Made by a program: the position numbers and the translations under genes. From positions 299,074 to 363,073 of the forward strand of contig CAWCRG010000017.1 of the NCBI GenBank assembly GCA_963797915.1: a DNA stretch of 64,000 nucleotides, in the 5' to 3' direction. This document shows, piece by piece, positions 18,772-51,744 of this stretch. Within the stretch, counting starts at the first letter, position 1. Every line of letters begins with the position of its first letter. The notes beneath the pieces are model-generated. The model saw only the letters and a list, made by a program, of their open reading frames with translations. It was not told the DNA's origin and ran no database searches. Source of the stretch: Candidatus Sericytochromatia bacterium (GTDB lineage: Bacteria; Cyanobacteriota; Sericytochromatia; UBA7694).

Positions 18772-20595
18772 GTGGACATTCAACAACAAGTTAATAATGT
18801 GAATATTCAAATTGCCACGGTCAACGGAACAGGCAGCCAATCGGCCAACCTGATTCTGATGCGCTCTATTTTTAATATGAGTGTACCCGTGGCCGCCAAG
18901 AATCTCTTCCCTTCAAATATTGCCGGGCTTCCCACCTGGTACACCGTCAGAGTGCACGAAAAAGGCTATCAGGCGAACCAGCAAGCTTGCGATATGATCG
19001 TTCTGATGAACCCGAATACCGTTTATGACGATATTCGCGCCCTGCGTCCCGGCGGGGTGGTGATTCACGATCAGGATATGAAAGTCGATCACGCGTTGCG
19101 AGAGGATCATATTAATTATGGGGTGCCCTTTGGCAGCCTGGTGAATGAAGCCACAGATAACGCCAAACTCAAGAAAAAAGTCGTCAATATGATCTATGTG
19201 GGGGTGTTGGCCCATCTGCTCGACATTGACCCGGCATCTATTGATCAGGCGGTGCAAAAGCAGTTCTCAGGCAAAGAAAAAGTGGTCAAGCTGAATGCTG
19301 AAGCGATTCGTATTGGCCGCGACTGGGCTGCCGAGCACTTAACCAAGCAAGATCCCTTTGTTTTGGAATCTGTGCCTGGCGCCACCGAAGGTAAAATACT
19401 CATTGAAGGCAATAACGCCACCGCCCTGGGGGCCTTAATGGGGGGCTGTACGTTCTTGTCCTGGTATCCTATTACCCCTTCGAGTTCTGTGTGTGAAGGT
19501 CTTATCGATTACTTCGGGGCTTTTCGCGTTAAAGACGATAAAAACCTTTATGCAGCGATACAAGCCGAAGATGAGATTGCAGCCATTGGCATGGTGTTGG
19601 GGGCTGGCTGGGCCGGTGCTCGGGCGATGACCGCTACTTCAGGCCCCGGTATTTCTCTCATGTCGGAACTGGCGGGCTATGCTTACTATGCCGAAATACC
19701 CAGCGTGATTGTCAATGTACAGCGCATGGGGCCAAGTACGGGCTTACCCACTCGCAACTCACAAGGTGATTTAACCTCTGCCTACGGTTTGTCTCATGGA
19801 GACACCCAGCATATTGTCTTGATTCCTGGCAATGTCGAAGAATGTTATACCATGGCCCAGGACGCTTTTGACCTGGCAGAACGCTTTCAAACCCTGGTGT
19901 TTTTACTGAGTGACTTGGATCTGGGCATGAACACCTGGATGGCTGAGCCTTTCAGTTATGCCACCCAAAGTCTGGACCGGGGTAAGGTCTTAGATGCTGC
20001 CGCTCTGGAGCAAGTGGAGCAGTTTCACCGTTACGCCGATGTCGACGGTGACGGCATTCCTTACCGAACCCTACCCGGCACCCGTCATGCGAAAGCGCCT
20101 TACTTTACGCGCGGCTCAGGTCACAACGCCCAGGCCAAATACACCGAAAAACCTGACGAATGGAAAGCTGGCCTGGATCGTTTGACCCAAAAATTTGCCA
20201 CGGCAGCAAAAGAGCTTCCTGCTCCTTTACTGCAAGTGGGAGACGGTCATACCGATTTCGCTTTAATTGCCTATGGCTCGACAGATGTTGCGATGCCAGA
20301 GGTTCTCGATATGCTTCAAGATCAGGGAGTCCAGCCCGATTATTTGAGGTTGCGGGCTTTGCCTTTTCATCCTCAAGTGCGCGCTTTTATTGAAGCTCAG
20401 GAACGGGTCTATATCCTTGAACAAAACCGGGACGGACAATTATTGCGTCTGTTGGCTGCGGAGTATCCCGATTTGGCGCCTCGCTTGCGTTCGGTTACCC
20501 ATTATGACGGCACCTTTGTAGACGCTTTGTCTTTAAGTAATGCGGTTCTTACTCATGAAAATATCTCACCAGTGGAGGCTATCGCCCATGTCTAA
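18772..20595 (+). CDS. korA: 2-oxoglutarate/2-oxoacid:ferredoxin oxidoreductase alpha subunit (KorA-type)
   Basis: 607-aa protein with the N-terminal gamma-like region, YPITPSS and TPP-enzyme motifs. A GTG start is preceded by AGGA. Confidence 0.8.
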   Translation: MDIQQQVNNVNIQIATVNGTGSQSANLILMRSIFNMSVPVAAKNLFPSNIAGLPTWYTVRVHEKGYQANQQACDMIVLMNPNTVYDDIRALRPGGVVIHDQDMKVDHALREDHINYGVPFGSLVNEATDNAKLKKKVVNMIYVGVLAHLLDIDPASIDQAVQKQFSGKEKVVKLNAEAIRIGRDWAAEHLTKQDPFVLESVPGATEGKILIEGNNATALGALMGGCTFLSWYPITPSSSVCEGLIDYFGAFRVKDDKNLYAAIQAEDEIAAIGMVLGAGWAGARAMTATSGPGISLMSELAGYAYYAEIPSVIVNVQRMGPSTGLPTRNSQGDLTSAYGLSHGDTQHIVLIPGNVEECYTMAQDAFDLAERFQTLVFLLSDLDLGMNTWMAEPFSYATQSLDRGKVLDAAALEQVEQFHRYADVDGDGIPYRTLPGTRHAKAPYFTRGSGHNAQAKYTEKPDEWKAGLDRLTQKFATAAKELPAPLLQVGDGHTDFALIAYGSTDVAMPEVLDMLQDQGVQPDYLRLRALPFHPQVRAFIEAQERVYILEQNRDGQLLRLLAAEYPDLAPRLRSVTHYDGTFVDALSLSNAVLTHENISPVEAIAHV

Positions 20596-21634
20596 CGTAT
20601 CAGCTAAATCGGCCAAACCGGCCAAAACCAATCACCTCGGATTATCCAAAGCGGATTACCAGGGGGGGCCCACCACCCTGTGTCCCGGTTGTGGTCACAA
20701 CGCGATTTCAAATCATATTATTCAGGCCTGTTACGAAGCGGGTGTCGATCCTGCCATGCTGGGTAAATTTAGCGGGATTGGCTGCTCTAGCAAGACCCCC
20801 GCTTATTTTGTAAGCCAGGCTCACGCGTTTAATTCGGCCCACGGTCGCATGCCCTCTGTAACCACGGGAGCCCTGGTGGCCAACCACAAGCTTGTGGGAC
20901 TGTCTGTCAGTGGCGATGGAGATACCGCCAGTATTGGTATTGGGCAGTTTATTCACGTGATTCGGCGTAATTTAGATATGGTTTATATTATCGAAAATAA
21001 CGGTGTCTATGGCTTAACCAAAGGGCAGTTTTCTGCCACCGCAGATCTGGGTAGTGTCTTAAAAAAAGGCGCAGAGAACCCCTTTGAACCTGTCGACCTC
21101 TGTGGTTTGGCGATTGAGCTTGGATGTGGCTTTGTAGCTCGCTCCTTCTCAGGCGACAAAAAGCAGCTGGTGCCCCTCATTCAAGCGGCCTTATCGTTCC
21201 GGGGAACGGCCGTTATTGATGTGGTGAGCCCTTGCGTCACCTTTAACGATCACAGTGGTTCCACCAAAAGTTATGAGTACGTCAAGGAAAACGATCAGCC
21301 TTTACAAGAACTGGATTTTATTCCTCACTTTGACGAAATAGAAGTCGATTACACCGACGCTGTGGATGTAAAGCTACATGATGGTTCTCACCTCAAACTC
21401 AAAAAACTGGGCAATGATTACGACCCTAAGGATCGCTTAGACGCCATGCGTCAAATTAAGGTGAATCATGAAGCCGGACATTTGCCCACCGGGCTGTTGT
21501 ACTATAACGACGCCAAAACGCCCTTTGATGAGGTTTTAAATCTGTCTGATACCCCATTGTCGTTATTGCCCACCGAGGATTTGCGCCCGACCCAGGCTCA
21601 GTTTGACGCGGTGATGCAGCGTTTTATGGGATAA
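20588..21634 (+). CDS. korB: 2-oxoacid:ferredoxin oxidoreductase beta subunit (TPP-binding)
   Basis: CPGCGH motif, GDGD TPP-binding motif; ATG at 20588 overlaps the korA stop. Confidence 0.8.
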   Translation: MSNVSAKSAKPAKTNHLGLSKADYQGGPTTLCPGCGHNAISNHIIQACYEAGVDPAMLGKFSGIGCSSKTPAYFVSQAHAFNSAHGRMPSVTTGALVANHKLVGLSVSGDGDTASIGIGQFIHVIRRNLDMVYIIENNGVYGLTKGQFSATADLGSVLKKGAENPFEPVDLCGLAIELGCGFVARSFSGDKKQLVPLIQAALSFRGTAVIDVVSPCVTFNDHSGSTKSYEYVKENDQPLQELDFIPHFDEIEVDYTDAVDVKLHDGSHLKLKKLGNDYDPKDRLDAMRQIKVNHEAGHLPTGLLYYNDAKTPFDEVLNLSDTPLSLLPTEDLRPTQAQFDAVMQRFMG

Positions 21635-31436: not shown

Positions 31437-32623
31437 TGCCCCGAAGAAAAGCCAATGGCGCAGGGAAAACACCGTTTTCTCTGCGCTTGCGGGCCCTGCG
31501 CAAACAAAGTCAGCTGAAAATGGATCAGCTGGCCGAGGCCGTGGGTGTTTCTAAATCCTTTATTTCATTATTAGAGTCGGGGGGGCGACAGCCCTCTCGT
31601 GAAGTGGTCTTAAATTTATCGGAGGCGCTGTTTTCCGCGCTCTCTGATCATGAGGACGATGGACACGATCAACTGCGCGATGAGTTATTAATTTTGGCTG
31701 GGTTCATGCCCGTTAACCCCCGTGCAGTTAGTGCTTATCGTGATACGTTGCTGGTGTATCAACAAGCCCTTGCCGAAAATCCTGACGATTTTCGGTTGTT
31801 TTCGCGTTGGTTGCTGGCCCTGATTCGTGCAGAACGTCAGGAAGAGGCCTACACCCATATTCAAGAGGGCCTTCAACGTTTTCAAGAAACCGCCTATATG
31901 CAGTGTCTTTTGGCACACCTGGAGTTAAGCAAAGGCAATTACGAAGCCGCTTTAATCAATCAAGAAAGTGCGCTCAAGCACGTTCGGCAGCAACCGGCTC
32001 CCCATTTAACCGAAGCAGATCTCATCTTTAATCTGGGTGCTATCCATTTTTTGATGGGCCATAAAAGTATGCGTGAAGGCGATCAAAAAATCGCTTTAAG
32101 TCATTATGAGCAGGCCATTGAAAACATGGAAGCATCGTTAGCTCTGGCTGAATCAGATATTTATGTGCTCGACGAATATGCCCGCCTATTGTTTAACCGC
32201 GCCTACCTCACCCAGGAGAATGCTCATTGGGAACAAACCATACAGGCTTATCGTCGTGTACTTATAGACCCAAAGAAAGCAGCCCTGGGAGTGAGTGCGC
32301 TGCGAGAGTCAGCTGCGTTTTTAGCCCATGCCTATACGCAAAACCAGGATTTTGCTACCGCAGAGCTTACCCTTGGTTTGCTGAGCGCTTTTCAAGCAGA
32401 ATACTGGTTGGTGAACTATTTACAAGCCTGTCTTTATACGGCGATGTTTAAATCTTCACAACAGGACCCCTGGCTAGACCGGGCTTTGCAGGCCTTAGCC
32501 GAGAGCCTGAAGCAGTCACCAGACCGGGTGCGAGAGGAAGCCCTGCACGATCCCGACCTACAGTTGCTTCGCGAGTGCCGCGCCCAAGACTTTAACCGAT
32601 TACTTAAGGAGAAAACCCGATGA
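31436..32623 (+). CDS. XRE-family HTH transcriptional regulator with TPR-like C-terminal domain
   Basis: HTH segment LRKQSQLKMDQLAEAVGVSKSFISLLESG. The C-terminal region is helical and repeat-like. The start overlaps the upstream stop. Confidence 0.6.
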   Translation: MPRRKANGAGKTPFSLRLRALRKQSQLKMDQLAEAVGVSKSFISLLESGGRQPSREVVLNLSEALFSALSDHEDDGHDQLRDELLILAGFMPVNPRAVSAYRDTLLVYQQALAENPDDFRLFSRWLLALIRAERQEEAYTHIQEGLQRFQETAYMQCLLAHLELSKGNYEAALINQESALKHVRQQPAPHLTEADLIFNLGAIHFLMGHKSMREGDQKIALSHYEQAIENMEASLALAESDIYVLDEYARLLFNRAYLTQENAHWEQTIQAYRRVLIDPKKAALGVSALRESAAFLAHAYTQNQDFATAELTLGLLSAFQAEYWLVNYLQACLYTAMFKSSQQDPWLDRALQALAESLKQSPDRVREEALHDPDLQLLRECRAQDFNRLLKEKTR

Positions 32624-34398
32624 ACAAGCACCCTTTAATCGCTACCGCATTCTTACTTTCATTGACCCTCTACACTGCCTGTAGCGCCCAAAACACTCCC
32701 TCTACCGTCAGCCCCAATCCCTCTGTTGATGCCAATGGTAATATTACTCCTTTTCCCAAGGGCCCCAAAGAACTCGACGGTATTATGCTGCCGAATGACG
32801 CATCACTTAACGCTGGTAATGGTCTGGGTAGTCGCAAAAGCAATGACGGCCTCATAAACGATAGCGCCGCAATGGTAGGCATAGAAGCGCCTGCTGCGCC
32901 GCCGATGGCAGAGTTTGCCCCGGGCGACGATGCCGCGGATGATTTCTCTACACCGGCTCCTCAGCCTACACCCACTCCGCAAAGTGAGGAGACTCCTTCG
33001 GATAACTCGCCCGAAACTTCGGTAGTGGAAGCGCAAAACTTTTTTTATTTTTCTTATGATGACTCAGCCAGTACGGCGGGTGTAGAGCAAACCAAGTTTG
33101 CCCTTGAGCGCAGTAGCCCTGTGCTTCCCAATCCTTCCTGGGTAAGGCCCTGGGAGTTTCTCAATTACGAAACCTTTACCCCGCAAAAGCTGACGACGCT
33201 AGGTACTTTTCAAGTGGCCATGGGTGTCTGGCAACACCGTGTACCCGGAAGTAATGATCCCAATACGCTCGCCGAGGAGCAAAGTGCTTATGATCTGGGG
33301 ATTCAGGTGAAAACGCCTGAAGTGAGTAAGGCAGATCGGCAAAATATCGTCTTGACGCTTCTACTGGATGTTTCTGGATCGATGAAAAGCCCCTCGGTGC
33401 AATTGAGTGAGTCGCAGCAGGTTCCTGACCTTTTAGCGGTGGCTAAAGCGGGCTTGCGCAAGTTGCCTGAACAACTCAAAGCCGGTGATGTGGTGAATTT
33501 GGTCACGTTTTCGAATGCGGCGACGACCCGTTTGGAGTCCTGGGCTTATACCGGTGAGGATACCCAGTGGCAATCCGTTGTATCGGCGTTAAATACCGAA
33601 GGGGGCACTAACCTTAATATTGGATTAGAGAAGGCCTACGCGCTGGCGCAGAAAACCTATAACTCTGCCAAAACCAACCGGGTGATGATGTTGACCGATG
33701 CTTTTGCCAACCAGGGGCAGGTGAATGCCGATATTGTGGCGCGCAATACCCAGATTAATAATGCCGAAGGCATTTACTTTTCGGGTCTGGGCCTTGGCGC
33801 TGATTTTAATGAGGGCTTTTTAAACACCCTTACCGAAGCCGGTAAGGGAAGCTATACCGCTTTAATGAGTACCACTGATGCCGAGCGTGCGTTTGGTGAG
33901 CGTTTTATTTCACTCACCCAAATTGCGGCCCGTGACGTGCGCTTTCGCCTGGATTACCCTGCTGCCTTGCAGCGTACGATCTCTGCAGCGGAGCAATCCT
34001 CTCAGGTGGCCAGCGAGGTGGACCCCATCCACTTTGCAGCCAATAGCTCTCAGTTTTTCTTAGAGCGCTTTCAGGCCGATGGTGAGGGTAACGTTAACGG
34101 AAGTATCAAGTTGACGATTGCCTATACCGATCCCGTCACCGGAGCAGAACGCGAAGAGGTGCAGTCGCTACCCCTAAGCGACCTGTTAAATCAGGAGCTA
34201 CCCAGTATTAAAGATGCCCGTATGGTGACGTTGCTGACCCAGCTGATTCAGGGCAAGGTGTCTCCAGCGGCAGCGCGTGTAGAAATGGATGCACTGCTTA
34301 ATACCCATAGCAGTGCATTGGCCAACACCTATAAAAAATATATTGAAACCTGGTTGTCTTTAGCTCAGGGCAATCAAGACACTGTTTCAGAACCTTAA
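32620..34398 (+). CDS. von Willebrand factor A domain lipoprotein
   Basis: Lipobox LTLYTAC. A MIDAS-containing vWA core (VLTLLLDVSGSM… TNLNIGL… MLTD). ATGA overlap with the upstream gene. Confidence 0.65.
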   Translation: MNKHPLIATAFLLSLTLYTACSAQNTPSTVSPNPSVDANGNITPFPKGPKELDGIMLPNDASLNAGNGLGSRKSNDGLINDSAAMVGIEAPAAPPMAEFAPGDDAADDFSTPAPQPTPTPQSEETPSDNSPETSVVEAQNFFYFSYDDSASTAGVEQTKFALERSSPVLPNPSWVRPWEFLNYETFTPQKLTTLGTFQVAMGVWQHRVPGSNDPNTLAEEQSAYDLGIQVKTPEVSKADRQNIVLTLLLDVSGSMKSPSVQLSESQQVPDLLAVAKAGLRKLPEQLKAGDVVNLVTFSNAATTRLESWAYTGEDTQWQSVVSALNTEGGTNLNIGLEKAYALAQKTYNSAKTNRVMMLTDAFANQGQVNADIVARNTQINNAEGIYFSGLGLGADFNEGFLNTLTEAGKGSYTALMSTTDAERAFGERFISLTQIAARDVRFRLDYPAALQRTISAAEQSSQVASEVDPIHFAANSSQFFLERFQADGEGNVNGSIKLTIAYTDPVTGAEREEVQSLPLSDLLNQELPSIKDARMVTLLTQLIQGKVSPAAARVEMDALLNTHSSALANTYKKYIETWLSLAQGNQDTVSEP

Positions 34399-39418: not shown

Positions 39419-40372
39419 TTAATGTGAGCTGTAGCCCCACGGGAGCCGAGCGTTCCCAGGGAATTTTGAGGGGGCGCAAAGCATAGTGGGGTAATGTTGA
39501 CGGAGTTGTTCCCAGAGACAGCCGGGTTCAAACTCCACCACATAGAGCGGAAGATCCACGGGGTAATGCTCGGGAAGTGTTAACACTCCGGGATATAAGC
39601 TGTCGAGTACCAGCACCGCATTGTCCTTCCAGTCCATCTCTAATAGCCAGCCGCCCATGGCTCCGGTCGCAATTAAGGCATAGTTTGGCGACGATTCGGG
39701 GCTCCAGTGCCGTAACCAGCGGGAGGCCAGTTGCTGGAGTTGTTGATGCTTTTTCTGGGCTCTGCGTAAGACATTGTTGCCCTGAATGGGGGGCAGCGCT
39801 AATGCTATCCATTCTGCATCTTGTACACTCTGTGTCGTACTGAGGAGCATGGGGTCGAGCAATAAAATAACCGGCTGGCGCAGGTATGCTGCCAGGGCAA
39901 AGGCTTCCTGCACGTTGTTTTGTACATGACTCAGGTGAGAAGGCATTAAATGGGGAAAGGGGAACCCGCTCCCGGGCCAGGCGTTTTGGAAACAGGCATA
40001 GCCGTAAGGGAGGGTAGAGGCACCGCGGTATTCCGGTGCTTGATAGAGCACCACCGCATAAACACAGGGAATCTCCTGCTGAAAAAAGTGAGCTAAGCCA
40101 TGTTGCACACTGAGAAAGTCGCTGTAATTGCTGCTAATAAACGGAATGTCTCCGAGCTGCCCTACCCCCTGAGCCATTGACAGCGCCTCAGTGGGCGTTT
40201 GGGTTTGCAAACAGATCCCGTGATGTTGTTGAAAACGGGTGAGTCCTTCATTGAGGAGCAGTGACTGCATGGGACTGGGACTTCCAAAATAATGGCGACA
40301 GCCGCTTTTAAGGACTGCTTCAATACACATTTGAAAGCCGTTGTAGACGGCAGCGTGTTGTTCAACAATCAT
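39419..40372 (-). CDS. 2-oxoacid:ferredoxin oxidoreductase alpha subunit (divergent, short)
   Basis: N-terminal AVLKSGCRHYFGSPSP resembles the PorA AGCRFFAGYPITP segment. At 317 aa it is shorter and more divergent than typical PorA. Confidence 0.5.
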   Translation of the reverse strand: MIVEQHAAVYNGFQMCIEAVLKSGCRHYFGSPSPMQSLLLNEGLTRFQQHHGICLQTQTPTEALSMAQGVGQLGDIPFISSNYSDFLSVQHGLAHFFQQEIPCVYAVVLYQAPEYRGASTLPYGYACFQNAWPGSGFPFPHLMPSHLSHVQNNVQEAFALAAYLRQPVILLLDPMLLSTTQSVQDAEWIALALPPIQGNNVLRRAQKKHQQLQQLASRWLRHWSPESSPNYALIATGAMGGWLLEMDWKDNAVLVLDSLYPGVLTLPEHYPVDLPLYVVEFEPGCLWEQLRQHYPTMLCAPSKFPGNARLPWGYSSH

Positions 40373-40683
40373 GGGTTAGTAGACTGCCCGTTCCAGAACT
40401 TGTGAAATCTTAGACTCAGACCAAAGACATAACCCTTGATGTTTTTTTGCGGAAAAGCGGGCGCAATAAATGCGTCATCTGGACAAATATCAACGCAATG
40501 CATGCAGTTAATACAATATTCAGGCCACTGCATTTGCACCGGAAGAAAACCCTGAGCATTTGCCTCTGTGTGGACGCCTGCCTCTTCAAAAAGTGCGTTG
40601 GGACAGACATTGATGCACAAGTTACAGCCTTTACATTGTTCGCTGTCTAACTGGACGGTGTTCAGATGTTCTGCAGTTCTCAT
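40369..40683 (-). CDS. 2x[4Fe-4S] ferredoxin (oxidoreductase delta subunit)
   Basis: Two CxxCxxCxxxCP motifs (CKGCNLCINVCP; CINCMHCVDICP). Overlaps the alpha gene start. Confidence 0.7.
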   Translation of the reverse strand: MRTAEHLNTVQLDSEQCKGCNLCINVCPNALFEEAGVHTEANAQGFLPVQMQWPEYCINCMHCVDICPDDAFIAPAFPQKNIKGYVFGLSLRFHKFWNGQSTNP

Positions 40684-40798
40684 AAGGCTATTGTCGCATA
40701 TTTGTCAGGGGGATCACAGTTTTTATGTGCGCCAATGGCTGGTGTTTCATCTATATAAGTGTATATAATACATTTATTAAGTCTCAAGGAGTTTTATT

Positions 40799-43304
40799 AT
40801 GTCAGATCAATCCAGAGAGCGGGATCTTGTATTGGCCCCCAATGAGTATGCCTTTATTTCGGATCAAACCAAAGGCAATATTAATGTGTATGTGGGCCCC
40901 TACAAAACCAGTTTGGCCAATACAGATCAGCCGGTGTTTTTTGATGAGCAGAGCAAACGCTTTGATCGCTGTGGCTTAGAGCAGGCCACGCGGGTTTTTG
41001 CCACCGCCCCTGAAGGATGGTATATCACCCTTAAAAACCCTGCCGGTGACCAAATGCAGCCTAAAAATGGCACGGTTAATAATTTGCCCGATCTGCAGGT
41101 GGGGCATAAGATTAATTTACCCGGACCGGTTTCTTTTGGCTTATGGCCCGGACAAATGGTGAGGGTACTTAAGGGGCATCACCTGCGCTCTAACCAGTAT
41201 TTACTGGTGCGCGTCTATGACGAAGCCTCAGCCCGCAGTAACTGGACACGGGCCGTGATGAAGCTTCAGGGCAATGTGCCCGAAGAGGGGCTGAATCTGA
41301 AAAGCGCTGCTGAAGAAACGTTAAATCTTGGACAGGAAATGGTGATTCGAGGCACCGAGGTTTCTTTTTATATTCCCCCGACCGGTATTGAAGTTGTTAC
41401 TGACAGGCAGGGCGGGTTGGTGAGAGAAGCGGTAACGTTGGAGCGACTTGAGTACTGCATTTTATTGGATGAAGACGGCAATAAACGCTATATTCAGGGG
41501 CCCGATGTGGTCTTTCCTGAGCCCACAGAACGTTTTGTGGAGCGGCAAGTGAGCGGTGTGCTCTGTAAAAAGTTTCGGGCTGTCGAACTCAATGAAAATA
41601 GCGGCATTTACGTGAAGGTGATTGCGCCCTATACGTCTTCTGACGGCGATAAAGTAACCCAGCATGGCGTGGGCGACGAACTGTTTATTACGGGTAAAGA
41701 TCAGATGATTTATTTTCCGCGCCCGGAACATGCGGTGATTAAGTATGGTGCCCAGGATATTCACTATGCGGTGGCCATTCCTGCGGGCGAAGGGCGTTAT
41801 GTGATGGAGCGTAACACCGGGCAGATTAGACTGGTAAAAGGGCCCCACCATGCTGCTGCCTGACCCCCGGCGAGAGGTCATGATACGGCGCGTACTGACC
41901 ACGCCCCAGGTGCGTCTGTGGTTTCCGGGCAATGCCGAAGCGATGGAGTATAATCACCAATTGCAGGAACTCTTAGCCGATGAAAAGGGAGCTTCGGTAT
42001 TGCCCCTTTCTGTACCCCTTGCGCCGACGGGTGGGCCTGCGGATGCAAAATCTCGCAGCGCTGCCAAATCCTCAAAAAGAGAAGTTACTCCCGCGTTGGC
42101 GGGTGAGGACTTTCATCGCAATACGCAGTATACGCCACCTCGGACCATTACCTTAAACACCAAGTATGATGGGGCGGTCGCGGTGTCCATCTGGACTGGC
42201 TACGCGGTGCTCGTGGTAAGTAAAACCGGAGAGCGTAAAGTCGTGGTGGGTCCACAAACCTACCTGCTGGCGTACGATGAAGCCCTGGAGCCCATGGCTT
42301 TATCTACGGGATCTCCCAAAAGCGAGTCTCAATTGCTTAAAACCGTTTACTTGCGGGTGTTGCACAATAAAATCTCCGATAAAATTCGTGTGGAAACGCG
42401 CGATCTGTGCGAGGTAGAGATTCAGCTTTCTTATCGGGTGAACTTTGAGGGCGATTCCCAATACTGGTTTAATGTGGAGAACTATGTCAAGTTTTTGACG
42501 GAGCATATGCGTTCTCGCATTCGCAACGCGGTCAAGCAGGTGGGTGTGGAAGCTTTTTATAGTCAGGCGGCTGATATCTTGCGCGATACCGTGCTGGGAG
42601 TCAGTGACGGACAACGGACCGGCTGCACCTTTGCTGAAAACGGCATGCGGGTGTATGACGTCGAGGTGCTCAATGTCACGCTGGTGGACCAAAGCGTGGA
42701 GCAATTGTTGATTGCCGCGCAACGGCAAGGGGTTGAGCAGACCTTGCAACTCAACGCCGAACGGCGCAAGCTGGACTTTGTGCAGGCTGAAGAGGTCGTC
42801 AAGCGAGAAATGTCTGAAGCCCGCATTCTCACGGAGACTCAGCATCATGATATAGAGCTTGAACGCTTACACCGTCAGCAGGCCTTACAATTGCAGCAGT
42901 TAAAAAGCCAAAGTGAAGCAGAACAAACCCGCCTGCTCGGCGAATTGGCCAATCAAGAGCAAATGAGTGCGGTGCATGAGGCTGAGTTAATGCGAGAGCG
43001 GGTGCGTTTAGAGCAGGAGTTGGCCATGGCTCACGAACGGACGCAGCAGCGTCTGATGCTGATGCAGGGTGAGGTAGAGGCGATGGCCCGCAAAGCAGAA
43101 GCCATTTCACCTGACCTGATTGCTGCTTTACAGGCTTTTGGCGATAAAGCGCTGGCGGAGCGCATGGCGGCATCGATGGGGCCACTCGCCATTCTCGGCG
43201 GCAATAGCGTGGCCGATGTCTTGTCCCAGCTGCTGGGCGGTACCCAGCTCGAACACCTTGTGCGCAAGGCGATGCCCCTCATGGGCCATATTACTGAAGA
43301 CTGA
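40799..43304 (+). CDS. Major vault protein (MVP) homolog, single gene with apparent frameshift near 41845-41865
   Basis: The N-terminus (LVLAPNEYAFISDQTKGNINVYVGPYKTSLANTDQPVFF) parallels the first MVP repeat of eukaryotic MVP ([38 protein letters not shown]). The C-terminal ORF parallels the MVP shoulder/cap-helix region (…VDQSVEQLLIAAQRQGVEQTLQLNAERRKL…). Combined length is about 835 aa. Confidence 0.6.
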
Positions 43305-43390
43305 AACCTCAGAGGCGTTGGGAATCGGGTATAATGGGTAGTCTTCATACATGATGTATGAAAAAGTATACACCACAGAACAGGTATCCC

Positions 43391-44325
43391 ATGACCGACG
43401 TCTCTCCCATTATCTCAATTACGAATTTATCCAAGGTCTACGCCTCAGGCTTTCAAGCCCTTAAAGCCGTGGACCTGGATATTCATCGCGGGGAGATTTT
43501 TGCGCTCCTCGGTCCCAATGGTGCGGGTAAAACCACCCTGATTAGTATTATTTGCGGCATTGTAAATGCTTCTACCGGTGAAGTGCTGGCCGATGGCCAC
43601 TCGGTATTTAAAGACTATCGACAAGCGCGTAGCAAGATCGGCCTGGTACCCCAGGAGCTTACCAACGATATGTTTGAAACGGTGTGGAATACGGTAAAGT
43701 TTAGCCGTGGGCTCTTTGGTAAAGCGCCCAATCCGGCCTTGCTCGAAGATATTTTGCGCCGTTTGTCACTGTGGGACAAAAAAGATCAGCAAATTCGCGC
43801 GCTTTGGGGGGCATGAAGCGACGGGTGATGATCGCCAAGGCGCTGTCTCATGAGCCCATGATTTTGTTTCTGGATGAACCCACTGCGGGTGTTGACGTGG
43901 ATTTGCGTAAAGATATGTGGGAAATGGTGCATCAGTTACGCAAAACCGGTGTCACGATTATTTTAACCACTCACTATATGAAGAAGCTCAGGAAATGGCT
44001 GACCGTATTGGTTTTATTCGCAGCGGTGAAGTCTTTTTAGTGGAAGAAGAAAAAGGCGCTGATGCAAAAATTAGGCAAAAAGCAATTGACGTTGCAATTG
44101 GCTGAACCCCTGTCAGAGATTCCAGCGACTTTACAAAGCCTGCCCCTTACGCTCTCCGAAAATCATATGCAGTTGGTATATACCTTTGATGCCCAAACGC
44201 AAAAAAAGGGCATTGCCTCGCTTTTACGGCAATTGTCCGATGAAGGCATTGATTTTCAAGATCTGTACACCAGTGAAAGCTCCCTCGAAGATATTTTTGT
44301 TAAATTGATTGGAACCTCAGTATGA
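43391..44325 (+). CDS. ABC transporter ATP-binding protein, broken into four frames (three frameshifts)
   Basis: Walker A (GPNGAGKTT), signature (LSGG-like at a G6 run), Walker B (ILFLDEPT) and H-loop (TTHY) are spread over ORFs 43358..43816, 43771..44040, 43917..44105 and 44062..44325. Confidence 0.6.
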
Positions 44326-44331
44326 ACCTTT

Positions 44332-45082
44332 ATGCGGTTAAGGCCATTTACGGCTTTGAATTGGCGCGCTTTTTTGCACCCTTTTTCAGAGCATTGCTTC
44401 CCCGGTGATTTCGACGTCGCTCTATTTTATTGTTTTTGGTTCGGCCATTGGTTCGCGTATGACCGATATCGAAGGCACGACTTATGCCGCTTTTATTGTG
44501 CCCGGTTTGATCATGCTATCGGTGCTGACAGAAAGTCTCTCTAACGCTTCTTTTGGTATTTATATGCCCAAGTATTCAGGAACAATCTATGAAATCCTCT
44601 CTGCACCCATTTCGGCCTTTGAAATTGTATTGGGTTATGTGGGCGCTGCGGCCAGTAAGTCGGTCATGCTTGGCTTTATTATCCTGGCCACCGCGCGCTT
44701 GTTTGTGGATTTTCAGATTATGCACCCGTTTTGGATGCTCGCCTTTTTACTACTGACCGCGCTGACCTTTAGCCTCTTTGGCTTTATTATTGGGGTGTGG
44801 GCAGATGGCTTTGAAAAACTGCAAATTATTCCCCTGATGGTGATTACCCCGCTGACCTTTTTGGGAGGAAGCTTTTACTCGATCAAAATGCTGCCCCCCT
44901 TTTGGCAAAAGGTCACGCTGTTTAATCCGATTGTGTACCTGATTAGTGGCTTTCGCTGGAGCTTTTACGGTGTGGCAGATGTGAGCATTGGACTCAGTCT
45001 TGGCATGACGGCGCTGTTTTTGTCAGTGTGTTTGGTACTGGTGTGGCTGATTTTTAAAACAGGGTATAAGATTAAAAATTAA
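44332..45082 (+). CDS. ABC-2 family permease, frameshift near 44365-44395
   Basis: The N-terminal [18 protein letters not shown]… is in one frame. The remainder (ORF 44405..45082) has six hydrophobic helices. T6 and T5 runs lie at the junction. Confidence 0.55.
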
Positions 45083-45224: not shown

Positions 45225-46112
45225 TTAGAGGCTGCGTCGCATGAGTCCATTTAATTGTATAGAGTAATGGGCTTTAACATCCCGAGTCCCGATAAGGGCT
45301 AACCCTATATTTTCTAAGTCTACGGTGACTTGTAATTTGTCACTGGTTTGAACGGTTTTCCAAGCTTGTTTCATGCCTTCCGACCAAAGGATATCGTCAA
45401 AAATAAGTAGGCTATTGGTGTGTAAATAGGGAAGAAATTGTTCAAAGTAAGCCAGGGTGGCAGTATGGTCATGGTGACCATCAATAAATGCGAAATCAAT
45501 GGGCTGGTGGTTCTCCAGCAATGCAGGCAGACAATCCTGAAAACGTCCTTCAATCACGGTGGCATAATCAGAGAGCCCCAGATTTTCGAGGGTGGAACGG
45601 CTTTGCTTAGCCAATACGGGAGAGCCTTCCAGGGTGAAAACTTGGCCTTGTTGTGTTTGTTTTAAAGCGCTTGCCTGATATGCCGCTGAAATGCCGACAC
45701 AGCTTCCCAGTTCGATACTGATCCGGGGCTCAAATGTTTTGGTCAGGTGGTATAGTAAGCTGGCCCAAAATGCAGGTTTGCTCGCGCGAGCCAAAGTGGC
45801 CAGTGATATTTCTGTTTTTATGCCCTGATACATTTCTTCTGTTGTGCGTTGCTTTTCGGGGGAGCCTGCCCCATAATCGATGCTTTCAACGATTTGTGTG
45901 CTTTGGTGAAGTTGTTGGCGATGGGATTCAATGGCCCGTATTGCCAGGGTTTCTTTTGGAGATAAGCGCTGAAAAAAGGTGTCTTCAATGGCTTTTGCCA
46001 GGGCCTGTGTCTGAGGGTTTTTGCTGTGTTTCATTTCTTGTAGAGCGGGTGGAAGCTGAGTTAATGCCACTTGGCGAAGTGCTTTTTTTAATACCTGTTT
46101 TAGTTTGCTCAT
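45225..46112 (-). CDS. Class I SAM-dependent methyltransferase (O-methyltransferase family 3-like)
   Basis: Motif I-like IELGSCVGISAAY and FIDGHHDH are characteristic of CmcI/family-3 O-MTases. Confidence 0.65.
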   Translation of the reverse strand: MSKLKQVLKKALRQVALTQLPPALQEMKHSKNPQTQALAKAIEDTFFQRLSPKETLAIRAIESHRQQLHQSTQIVESIDYGAGSPEKQRTTEEMYQGIKTEISLATLARASKPAFWASLLYHLTKTFEPRISIELGSCVGISAAYQASALKQTQQGQVFTLEGSPVLAKQSRSTLENLGLSDYATVIEGRFQDCLPALLENHQPIDFAFIDGHHDHTATLAYFEQFLPYLHTNSLLIFDDILWSEGMKQAWKTVQTSDKLQVTVDLENIGLALIGTRDVKAHYSIQLNGLMRRSL

Positions 46113-46186: not shown

Positions 46187-46345
46187 GGCTTTGATCGACT
46201 TCTCTTAAAACGGCTAAAATCTTAAATGTGATGTCCTACAATGTTGATATCGATGATTTTTAGCTGACCGCGCATGTCTTCGTCGAGTACGGTACTAAAG
46301 ATAACGTTGGCGTCGGGGTTAACTGTGTTTTCAATGGCTTCATCA
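46187..46345 (-). pseudogene. 3' fragment of a diverged ftsZ-like paralog (last ~40 codons plus downstream sequence)
   Basis: About 75% nucleotide identity to 50768..50930. It translates to …DEDMRGQLKIIDINIVGHHI*, compared with …[20 protein letters not shown] in the intact gene. Confidence 0.55.
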
Positions 46346-46609
46346 GCTTTGGATAAACCCACTGCGGGTGTTGACGTGGATCTGCGTAAAGATATGTGAG
46401 AAATGGTGTGTCAGCTGTGTAAAACTGGCGTCACGATTATTTTAACCACTCACTATATCGAAGAAGCCCAGAAAATGGCTGACCATATTGGTTTTATTCG
46501 CAGCGGTGAAGTCTTTTTAGTCGAAGAGAAAAAGGCGCTGCTGACCTTTTGGGGGGAAGCTTTTACGGTGTGGCTGATTTTTAAAACCGGCTACAAAACT
46601 AAGAACTAG
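46346..46609 (+). pseudogene. Remnant of the ABC transporter operon (ATPase fragment fused to permease 3' tail)
   Basis: 46346-46545 matches 43870-44060 (…[35 protein letters not shown]…). 46546-46609 matches the permease tail at 44862-44880 and 45040-45082 ([10 protein letters not shown]). Confidence 0.6.
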
Positions 46610-47802: not shown

Positions 47803-48718
47803 CTAATCTATAATTTTTTTGCCGGGATAGATAGTGGCTCCTGGGGGAGGTGTTCCCTCAACGCCCATATTTCCTTTGTCGCCCATAGGAAAGTTAGGCT
47901 TTTGTCCTGGACTGGGCTTCGTTCCGATGGGTGCCTGGCCGGGTTTACCCGTGGGGAAATTGGGTTTATTACCCAGTTCAGGCTTGGGTTTTTGTCCGTC
48001 GTGAATGTGAGCGCCTTGAGGGGGCTTGCCTTCGGTACCCATTTGAGGTTGCGGCTTTTGTCCCTGGCTAATTTGTGCGTCTTTGGGAGGCTTGCCTTCG
48101 GTACCCATTTGAGGTTGCGGCTTTTGTCCCTGTGAATTTGTGCGTCTTGGGAGGTTTACCTTCGGTACCCATTTGAGGTTGTGGCTTTGTGGTAATTTGT
48201 GCGTCTTTGGGAGGCTTGCCTTCGGTACCCATTTGAGGTTGCGGCTTTTGTCCCTGGCTAATTTGTGCGTCTTTGGGAGGCTTGCCTTCGGTACCCATTT
48301 GAGGTTGCGGCTTTTGTCCCTGGCTAATTTGTGCGTCTTTGGGAGGCTTGCCTTCGGTACCCATTTGAGGTTGCGGCTTTTGTCCCTGGCTAATTTGTGC
48401 GTCTTTGGGAGGCTTGCCTTCGGTACCCATTTGAGGTTGCGGCTTTTGTCCCTGGCTAATTTGTGCGTCTTTGGGAGGTTTACCTTCGGTACCCATTGAA
48501 GGCTTGTCGGGAAATTTTTGAGGGGTTTTAAGACTATCACTTTTCACGGGGGTAGATTGAAGGGTGTCTTTCTGGTCAATGGCTGGCTTCTGTGCTTGAG
48601 TGATGTCCTCTTTTTTAATGTCTTTGTCTTTAACTTCTCCCTTTTTCCCGATAGGGAAGGCGTTTGCTGCGCTATTTACTGCTGAAGACAGAGGGCCGGT
48701 ACTCATACTCATACTCAT
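47803..48718 (-). CDS. Lys/Pro/Gln-rich tandem-repeat protein (22-aa repeats MGTEGKPPKDAQISQGQKPQPQ), frame broken within the repeat array
   Basis: ORFs 48068..48718 and 47803..48540 overlap in two frames. The frame changes at a 64-bp variant repeat copy (48100-48163). No signal peptide. Confidence 0.5.
48034..48520. repeat. 66-bp tandem repeat array (about 7.5 copies; one 64-bp and one 60-bp variant)
   Basis: The anchor ggtaccc recurs at 48034, 48100, 48164, 48224, 48290, 48356, 48422 and 48488. Confidence 0.85.
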
Positions 48719-49236
48719 GACATCCTTTGGATTTTTAATGGTTTTAATAAAATAATTTTGTAGGCACTTATCTACGAAGACTTTTTGAGAATAAATCTAA
48801 AGACAAACGTGAAAAGTAACGATTTAAAAAACAATATGCTTCTATTTTAACTTTTTTTTCGTGAACTCTTGCGGAATTTAATCAATTATTAAGATATTTT
48901 AATCAAGCTTAGCTTTCTGCTGACGGTATTTTCTTGAAGGTCTCTTTGGGGCGTGTCCTATCGTTTACACGACGACATTTCAATTTAGAATTCTATTTTG
49001 CATCCAGCACATGCTCTAAGAGGCCGTCCCATTGCCAGGACTGCATGGGAGTATACTCAGCCCCAAGACCAATGGCACCGTTGAATATACCGGAGTTGTT
49101 GACTTCATTGCGTCTGTTGACCGTAACTTCTGTGTCACCTTGATCATCATGGCGCTGGTTCACAAAAACATTTTTATGCCTTTTGACCTTATCATTCTAA
49201 ACCACTTTGCAAACAAGGCCGATTTTTTCTTGACAA

Positions 49237-50802: not shown

Positions 50803-51744
50803 TTAAAGGTGACGGCCCACAATGGCGATGACGGTCACTTTCACCTGATCGCGCATGTCTTCGTCGAGTACGGTGCCAAAAATAACGTTGGCATCGGGGT
50901 TGACCGTATTGTAAATGACTTCGGCGGCTTCGTTAATTTCATGGAGCGAAACATCCTGGCCGCTGGTGATGTTAAAGACCACACCGGTGGCGCCGTCAAT
51001 GGAGTATTCCAGCAGTGGGTTCTCGATGGCTTTTTTGACAGCGTCTACAGCGGGATTTTCCACGTCCATAGAGCTGACGCCCACACCCATGACACCCACA
51101 CCGGCGTCGCTCATAATGGCGCGCACATCAGCAAAATCGACGTTGATCAGGCCGGGGATGTTAATAATGTCAGAAATGCCCTGAATGGCGAGCAATAAAA
51201 CATTGTCGACTTCTTGAAACGCATTTTTGACGGCCAGGCCGCCTTTCATGCTCTGTAATAAGCGATCGTTAGATACCACAATCAGGGTATCTACAGCGTT
51301 CAGCATGCGTTGAATGCCAGCATCGGCCTGTTCTTTACGGCGCTTGCCTTCAAACATAAATGGGCGGGTCACAACGCCTACGGTCAGTGCGCCCATGGAC
51401 TTTGCCATTTCAGCGAGAGCCGGGCCTGCGCCGGTACCGGTACCACCACCCATACCGCAGGTGACAAAAACCATGTCGGTGTCTTGCAAGTAGTGGCTGA
51501 GTTCTTCGCGACTTTCTTCGAGGGCCTTCATGCCCACTTCGGGGTTTCCGCCGGCGCCGAGGCCGCGGGTGCTTTTGCCGCCAATTTGAATGCGTTCCTG
51601 AGCGTCGACCATTGAAAGGGCCTGGGCATCGGTGTTGACAGCAATAAACTCGACCCCTTCAAAGGCGGCAGCGCGCATATGATTAATCGTATTTCCGCCG
51701 CTGCCGCCAACGCCGAAAACTTTAATGCTAACCAGTGGTGTCAT
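50803..51744 (-). CDS. FtsZ paralog comprising only the core GTPase and C-terminal domains (no linker or C-terminal tail)
   Basis: FGVGGSGGN, tubulin signature [12 protein letters not shown] and T7 loop NVDFADV. 313 aa ending …VIAIVGRHL, with 85 bp to the next gene. Confidence 0.8.

Follow-up and report, generated by a model that had tools for sequence, protein, structure and literature searches.

A Bacterial-Type Major Vault Protein Homologue Interrupted by a Frameshift in a Sericytochromatia Genome

Introduction

The canonical eukaryotic vault is a closed cage of D39 symmetry built from the major vault protein (MVP) in 78 copies. Here we describe a bacterial MVP homologue encoded at positions 40799-43304 (plus strand) of a 64,000-nt stretch of contig CAWCRG010000017.1 from a Candidatus Sericytochromatia bacterium (GCA_963797915.1; this whole stretch is hereafter "the window"). 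The coding sequence is deposited as two overlapping open reading frames (ORFs). We read these as a single gene for a bacterial-type MVP that was split by one extra base in the assembly, and whose product would, by homology, form a soluble vault-like shell (rough probability 0.85).

Earlier in silico work reported bacterial MVPs from Myxococcota, Cytophagales/Saprospira and Herpetosiphon (Daly et al. 2013, PMC3762200; Sokolskyi 2019, 10.1101/872010; Santos et al. 2023, 10.1101/2023.11.10.566534). The same studies distinguish two bacterial groups, one from Oscillatoriales that is ~54% identical to eukaryotic MVP and one from Myxococcales, Cytophagales, Saprospira and Herpetosiphon that is ~25% identical, and they propose a link to gliding motility. 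The Oscillatoriales proteins group with amoebozoan MVPs and were read as eukaryote-to-bacterium transfers (PMC3762200). On the human vault, repeats R3-R5 dock PARP4's MINT domain, with key contacts in R4, and MVP residues R511 and L517 belong to a NAD+/ADP site (PMC12280208). We found no published experimental study or solved structure of any bacterial MVP in the literature or the PDB.

The protein in the window is a real MVP homologue but not a new find, as its family is already known, widespread and annotated. Judged from its sequence, it is a member of the divergent bacterial group and not of the Oscillatoriales one.

Results

One Gene in Two Reading Frames

The two ORFs lie in different frames, overlap by 14 nt and are preceded by a plausible ribosome-binding site. 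The features of the locus are as follows (u1-u7 are repeat units and aa numbers refer to the repaired protein).

40786-40791, plus strand: Shine-Dalgarno-like AAGGAG, 7 nt 5' of the ATG at 40799 (read from the sequence)
40799-41863, plus strand: ORF1, 354 aa (ORF list)
41850-43304, plus strand: ORF2, 484 aa (ORF list)
40799-41843, plus strand: 5' part of the MVP gene in the frame of 40799, codons 1-348, through ...LVKG; u1-u5 and the start of u6
41840-41846, plus strand: frameshift site, run GGGCCCC with one surplus base (three-frame translation and repair)
41844-42365, plus strand: 3' frame of the MVP gene, with the rest of u6 (rat R8-like; contains helices plus the disordered loop of variable sequence at aa 399-441) and u7 (rat R9-like, aa 461-522) (profile alignments, Vault_3 match, secondary structure of the model)
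42366-42689, plus strand: shoulder domain (SPFH/Band-7-like), aa 523-630
42690-43097, plus strand: cap helix, aa 631-766, with many E, Q, L, A and R among its 136 residues (one continuous helix by DSSP on the model)
43098-43304, plus strand: C-terminal region, aa 767-834, and stop codon (family conservation; predicted local distance difference test (pLDDT) 34-53)

The intact protein of a sister species matches 40799-41842 in the frame of 40799 (tblastn, 94% identity), and deletion of one C from GGGCCCC yields an 834-aa protein in which the reading ...KGPTMLLPDPR... is restored. The earlier note, made by a model from the DNA alone, had proposed one ~835-aa protein broken at the cccc/ccccc runs; the break is at the first of these, not at CCCCC 41864-41868. 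We consider the two ORFs a single gene because the repaired junction (LVKGPTMLLPDPR) is identical residue for residue in 21 of 21 aligned homologues, because the gene is unbroken, with 834 aa, in relatives at 92-93% protein identity (on 17 contigs in one case), and because the ratio of nonsynonymous to synonymous substitution rates (dN/dS) is low in both halves. Against the sister species this ratio is 0.036 in the N half, 0.043 in the C half and 0.002-0.01 in the adjacent ABC genes. The MVP gene is thus under strong purifying selection, and relaxed selection leaves no trace in dN/dS. The 484-aa ORF2 product is deposited letter for letter in NCBI/ENA as a separate protein, and therefore the break is present in the public deposit.

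Homology to the Major Vault Protein

ORF2 matched the Pfam family MVP_shoulder (PF11978) at E 5.2e-30 (104.3 bits where the cut-off is 25; positions 2-118 of the 118 in the profile) and, through its residues 125-168, Vault_3 (PF17795) at 1.2e-6 (29.0 bits, just over the cut-off of 28.8). The latter was the single match to the Pfam Vault models PF01505 and PF17794-6, and a weak match to Band_7 (3.8e-5) was also returned. ORF1 gave no Pfam match at E<=1. In phmmer searches of the PDB, ORF2 aligned with solved MVP chains at 1.5e-14 over MVP residues 477-826, which comprise the last repeat, the shoulder and the cap helix, and ORF1 residues 211-349 aligned with MVP 273-404 at 4e-5, colinear with the ORF2 match. 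The N-terminal repeats were picked up only through profile and structure comparison. Searched against the PDB, a profile of the repaired protein and its homologues retrieved MVP only, in colinear pieces, at 1.2e-26 when built from 22 sequences and 2.2e-40 when built from 148.

An AlphaFold2 model of the repaired protein from the 148-sequence alignment reached a mean pLDDT of 83.7, with the repeats and shoulder above 90; only the variable loop 399-441 and the C-terminal 70 residues were poorly defined. This alignment replaced an earlier one of 22 close sequences, from which the mean pLDDT was 50 and the N-terminal half was unusable. The 12 best PDB matches of the model in Foldseek were vault chains from human, rat and rabbit (E 8e-35 to 8e-27, ~900 columns, 16-20% identity), followed by the murine R1-R7 crystal fragment (8.6e-15) and then by SPFH cage proteins (1e-7 and weaker). 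Overall identity to animal MVP is 16-21%. We detected no membrane segment, the maximum Kyte-Doolittle mean over 19 residues being 1.3. Since vault chains rank ahead of SPFH proteins and no hydrophobic segment is present, the product is a full-length MVP homologue, predicted to be soluble, and more than an SPFH protein.

These results agree with the earlier note in identifying an MVP homologue and in assigning the shoulder and cap helix to the C-terminal ORF, and the resemblance extends well beyond the short N-terminal stretch that it had aligned by eye with the first MVP repeat (P-x-x-Y, SDQ/LDQ, VxVGP, VFF/VLF). HMMER places that stretch in the same register (ORF1 residues 12-48 with MVP 10-45), although its score of -3.6 is not significant alone. 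Among the Pfam models that the note had named, PF11978 and PF17795 responded and PF01505 was silent.

PADLOC and PHROGs gave no match for the intact orthologue, and on this basis an origin in a defence system or phage was rejected. As a separate observation, an 802-aa "prohibitin domain-containing" protein of Harvfovirus (BFVD A0A3G5A4K1) can be aligned with the model along its whole length (Foldseek 6.5e-12 across 927 columns) and may represent an MVP-like protein in giant viruses.

Domain Architecture

Repeat units were defined from sequence motifs, the DSSP string of the model and hhalign self-comparison. They fall into two types, A ("hYChhhDP...hhVGP....h.P.E") and B ("hhhKhhh.Y....G.ELFI.G....YhP..E").

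u1, residues 8-52: type A
u2, residues 53-118: type A
u3, residues 119-205: type B, with a ~30-residue helical insert
u4, residues 206-262: type A
u5, residues 263-318: type B
u6, residues 319-460: type A, with two helices and the disordered variable loop
u7, residues 461-522: type A

The order of repeats is thus A-A-B-A-B-A-A, compared with A-A-B-B-B-A-B-A-A in rat MVP. HMMER maps u4-u7 to R6-R9 and u1 to R1 and aligns the last part of u3 with that of R3, and the profile alignment sets residues 454/468 onward against rat/human MVP 458/465 onward. Because of this mapping, and because two type-B units fewer were counted, the protein appears from the model to be of a bacterial type with seven N-terminal repeats (aa 8-522) rather than nine, the equivalents of R4-R5 being the missing pair. 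Published in silico accounts of bacterial MVPs do not mention a repeat count (10.1101/872010; 10.1101/2023.11.10.566534).

Nearly all of the 5' part (u1-u5 and the start of u6) has pLDDT above 90 in the model, and the protein's first 50 residues hardly vary across the 22 closest homologues. The cap helix (pLDDT 60-88) aligns with that of MVP to about residue 816. The C-terminal region that follows is conserved across the bacterial family (AISPDLIAALQAFGDKALAE...PLAILGG.SVADVL) and sits at the position of the cap ring. At the boundary between the last repeat and the shoulder lies an LS.G.PK motif common to MVP, of which S502 and K507 are invariant in the 148 bacterial sequences. Along the chain this motif adjoins the human NAD+/ADP-pocket residues R511 and L517, a position that makes nucleotide binding a candidate property worth testing.

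Distribution and Ancestry

The earlier note called MVP very rare in bacteria, which proved an overstatement. More than 6,853 proteins reached E<=1e-3 in a first search, and the best 120 of these were 57-93% identical over the full length, many of them labeled "major vault protein" by JGI. An exhaustive search of a library clustered at 50% identity returned 1,691 clusters at a threshold of E<=1e-3, of which 773 reached E<=1e-30. Relatives occur in at least 434 of 185,579 GTDB species representatives, across more than 10 phyla; carriers include Sericytochromatia, Riflebacteria, Myxococcota (Polyangia, Nannocystaceae), Cytophagales, Microscillaceae, Planctomycetota, Chloroflexota, Vulcanimicrobiota, Desulfonema and others.

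In a neighbour-joining tree of 83 proteins, branches largely follow phylum, and the window protein falls within a monophyletic Sericytochromatia clade. The bacterial MVP family is large and, judged by this tree, coherent by phylum, and the branch that includes the window protein follows host lineage. Among genomes, the best match is a metagenome-assembled genome of Ca. Sericytochromatia (82%) with shared synteny. In the sister species, at 92-93% protein identity, genes stand in the same order as in the window for more than 20 kb. The MVP gene of the window does not differ from its flanks in GC content. Recent horizontal transfer from a eukaryote, which the earlier note implied and for which it suggested a phylogeny, was therefore rejected on tree, synteny and composition, and the 16-21% identity to animal MVP also speaks against it.

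Genomic Neighbourhood

Domain scans of the flanks agree with the earlier note in placing the gene between a ferredoxin oxidoreductase operon and an ABC exporter. Upstream, on the minus strand, are genes for a 2x[4Fe-4S] ferredoxin (Fer4), three 2-oxoacid:ferredoxin oxidoreductase subunits and a DUF4381 protein; downstream are an ABC ATPase and then an ABC-2 permease. ORF clustering across 83 loci revealed no gene family that accompanies MVP across phyla. The Fer4/oxidoreductase neighbours are confined to the six closest loci and the ABC pair to a few, and the remaining clusters are antisense shadow ORFs. As the neighbours recur only in the closest loci, they reflect lineage-local synteny, not partnership, and a functional link to the oxidoreductase or the exporter was rejected.

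The note had also seen no TEP1 or PARP partner, and we likewise found no TEP1/TROVE, NACHT-WD40 or PARP domain among the scanned genes of 29-61 kb. No Rfam family is present in the window, hence no vault RNA, and no tRNA was found in it. The sole VWA protein among the scanned genes (32620-34398) belongs to a conserved, unrelated HTH/VWA cluster. From this comparison of loci, bacterial MVP appears to be a stand-alone gene without a conserved partner.

Several other features of the window were recorded. A 317-aa protein (39,419-40,372, minus strand) occupies the position of the oxidoreductase alpha subunit, has no Pfam match and shows conservation across the six closest loci; at 18,772-21,634 there is a second, conventional POR/OFOR gene pair. 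At 50,803-51,744 (minus strand), next to ATP-grasp-like and KAS III genes, a short, 313-aa FtsZ/tubulin-family protein is 98-99% identical to relatives, an unusually high conservation given that the genes beside it reach only 80-95%. The gene at 47,803-48,814 (minus strand) belongs to no Pfam family and contains ~66-nt tandem repeats and an apparent frame change at ~48,135-48,190 relative to the sister species.

A Cluster of Single-Base Indels

The frameshift in MVP is one of about six uncompensated 1-nt indels that, relative to three related loci (L001, L004 and L087), fall within 39,488-44,376 and affect four neighbouring genes, MVP among them. The others are listed here.

~39,488: 1-nt indel, C-terminus of the oxidoreductase alpha subunit
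43,804, 43,980 and 44,049: 1-nt indels, ABC ATPase
44,376: 1-nt indel, ABC-2 permease

Comparable genes at 31.4-39.4 kb and 49.8-58.3 kb (~17 kb coding) are all single-frame. By our own arithmetic, the chance that six of six uniformly placed indels fall within 4.9 of ~22 kb is ~1e-4. Directly downstream, the segment 45,083-46,640 is a rearrangement scar, which the sister species lacks, with the following contents.

45225-46112, minus strand: inserted Methyltransf_24 gene (weak PADLOC mad2 match)
46225-46356: degenerate copy of the 3' end of the FtsZ-like gene
46350-46533: degenerate copy of the middle of the ABC ATPase, 90% identical to 43871-44053, with the ancestral frame kept where the main copy has indels
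46567-46608: degenerate copy of the 3' end of the permease

These observations raise the strongest alternative, in which a block of 5 kb with the genes for the oxidoreductase alpha subunit, MVP, the ABC ATPase and the ABC-2 permease is genuinely decaying in this strain beside the scar, the MVP gene is a recent pseudogene and no vault-like protein is made. In its favour, about six indels are concentrated in a block whose ~17 kb of comparable flanks have none, most of the indels lie outside long homopolymers, the segment alongside carries an inserted methyltransferase and degenerate gene copies, and the split product is part of the public deposit. However, with dN/dS at 0.002-0.04 in the MVP halves and ABC genes, any decay must have begun too recently to show, all relatives seen carry an intact orthologue, and three indels in one 930-bp ATPase whose intact part retains 97% protein identity look more like consensus error. 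We regard the pseudogene as a serious contender, at a little less than even odds. The break, which is not a designed feature, thus stems either from a local error of consensus, the region being structurally variable, or from gene-block decay of very recent date, error being slightly more likely.

Other public sequences of this organism were sought. A contig from a Logan short-read assembly (L086, ERR12040027) is 99.94% identical in nucleotides to the window over 1,655 bp and represents the same strain; two others (L084/L085, SRR26831655/85) are of the same species, at 95-97% identity to the window. In looking for an independent same-strain assembly over the junction, exact look-ups with ORF1 or ORF2, with the Fer4 gene and with the methyltransferase were all empty, a DNA pattern scan of JGI metagenomes for the junction gave no match, and a protein search with a 181-aa junction fragment returned distant fragments only.

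Discussion

The next alternative is that the protein is an SPFH-family scaffold, forming a dome or ring on the inner membrane in the manner of HflK/C, flotillin or stomatin, with the repeat chain as an extension. The Band_7 match (3.8e-5) fits this possibility, as does the Band-7 signal that has been noted in the non-cyanobacterial clade of bacterial MVPs (10.1101/872010). Nevertheless, the full-length match to MVP, which includes the repeat chain, is more than 25 orders of magnitude better than that to any SPFH protein, the sequence has no transmembrane or lipid-anchor segment, and no NfeD or FtsH partner gene lies nearby, so that we consider such a scaffold unlikely. A +1 ribosomal slip of tRNA-Pro on CCC-C at 41843-41846, a slip-prone context, would give exactly the conserved ...KGP-TMLL... 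reading and still yield the full-length protein, but a programmed slip is very improbable because no relative carries the extra base and there is hence no conserved signal, and it would leave the unrelated indels in neighbouring genes unexplained.

We therefore favour a single gene for a bacterial-type MVP split by one surplus base in the assembly, but several points weigh against this interpretation. The gene is interrupted as deposited, and the full-length product may not be made in the source organism. PF01505, the Pfam Vault repeat model, gives no match to the N-terminal half, and no solved bacterial MVP structure was among the PDB search results. The repeat count draws on motifs, a secondary-structure string and weak hidden Markov model alignments, without inspection of coordinates. 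Finally, the shoulder also resembles membrane-associated SPFH cages, so that the product may instead form a half-shell on a membrane.

By homology, the repaired product most likely works as a cage-forming protein. Many copies would pack side by side into a dome, as in MVP and SPFH cages, with the cap helices bundled into a cap and the repeats forming the barrel wall, and two halves may pair via the highly conserved N-terminal domain. The result would be a soluble vault-like shell with a barrel shorter than that of the animal vault because two repeats are missing. Such a shell protein would lack PARP4-type docking and has no TEP1, PARP4 or vault-RNA partner. Since no neighbour gene is conserved, it appears to work alone at its locus. 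Cage assembly by bacterial MVP is something that we infer by homology.

More generally, bacterial MVPs, including the Sericytochromatia orthologues, could build true closed, vault-like nanocompartments with a shorter barrel of seven repeats, from one stand-alone gene with neither TEP1 nor PARP4 nor vault RNA as a partner, and could have been inherited mostly vertically within several phyla. The shell would then be a bacterial invention to which eukaryotes added R4-R5 as a dock for PARP4. This scenario is tentative, and we would bet somewhat against it; if true, bacteria offer a minimal system for learning what vaults do. Vault function is a forty-year-old question, and the value of bacterial homologues as a simpler study system has been recognised since 2013 and is independent of this broken locus. 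Likewise, whether bacteria build vaults is a general question, not one specific to this window. The bacterial architecture seems to be without the two repeats that help PARP4 docking in animals. For the window itself, the practical consequence is that the contig annotation splits one gene into two proteins, which deserves a check against the reads.

Comparison With Known Systems

The window protein shares with eukaryotic MVP (human, rat and rabbit; PDB 4V60, 7PKZ, 9BW5, 9MXV, 9Z4W) the order of its parts: a chain of beta-repeats, an SPFH-like shoulder, a long cap helix and a C-terminal tail. It differs in the predicted number of repeats (seven counted, compared with R1-R9), in the length of the cap helix (136 compared with ~155 residues), in the helical insert of ~30 residues within its third repeat, and in the strong conservation of its C-terminal region across the bacterial family. 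The minor components of the canonical vault, namely TEP1 (TROVE/NACHT/WD40), PARP4 and vault RNA, have no counterpart in the scanned genes or the window.

SPFH/Band-7 cages (HflK/C, QmcA, stomatin, prohibitin, flotillin, erlin) have in common with it the shoulder fold and a long helix that bundles into a dome. Unlike the window protein, they are membrane-anchored and without an N-terminal repeat chain, and the match to them spans only ~220-350 residues.

The MVPs of Oscillatoriales (Moorea/Lyngbya F4Y3B4, Oscillatoria, Microcoleus) are likewise MVP homologues in the cyanobacterial lineage sensu lato, but the window protein lies in the other, deeply divergent clade, together with Sericytochromatia. 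Neither this host lineage nor its relatives are among the taxa named for bacterial MVPs (PMC3762200; 10.1101/872010; 10.1101/2023.11.10.566534). Unlike the bacterial MVPs described there, the copy in the window is frameshifted. In other respects it resembles them closely, with a length of ~820 aa, a weak Band_7 signal and ~20-25% identity to eukaryotic MVP, and it is 54-60% identical over its full length to the MVP-like proteins of Enhygromyxa salina, Microscillaceae, Polyangiaceae and Cytophagales.

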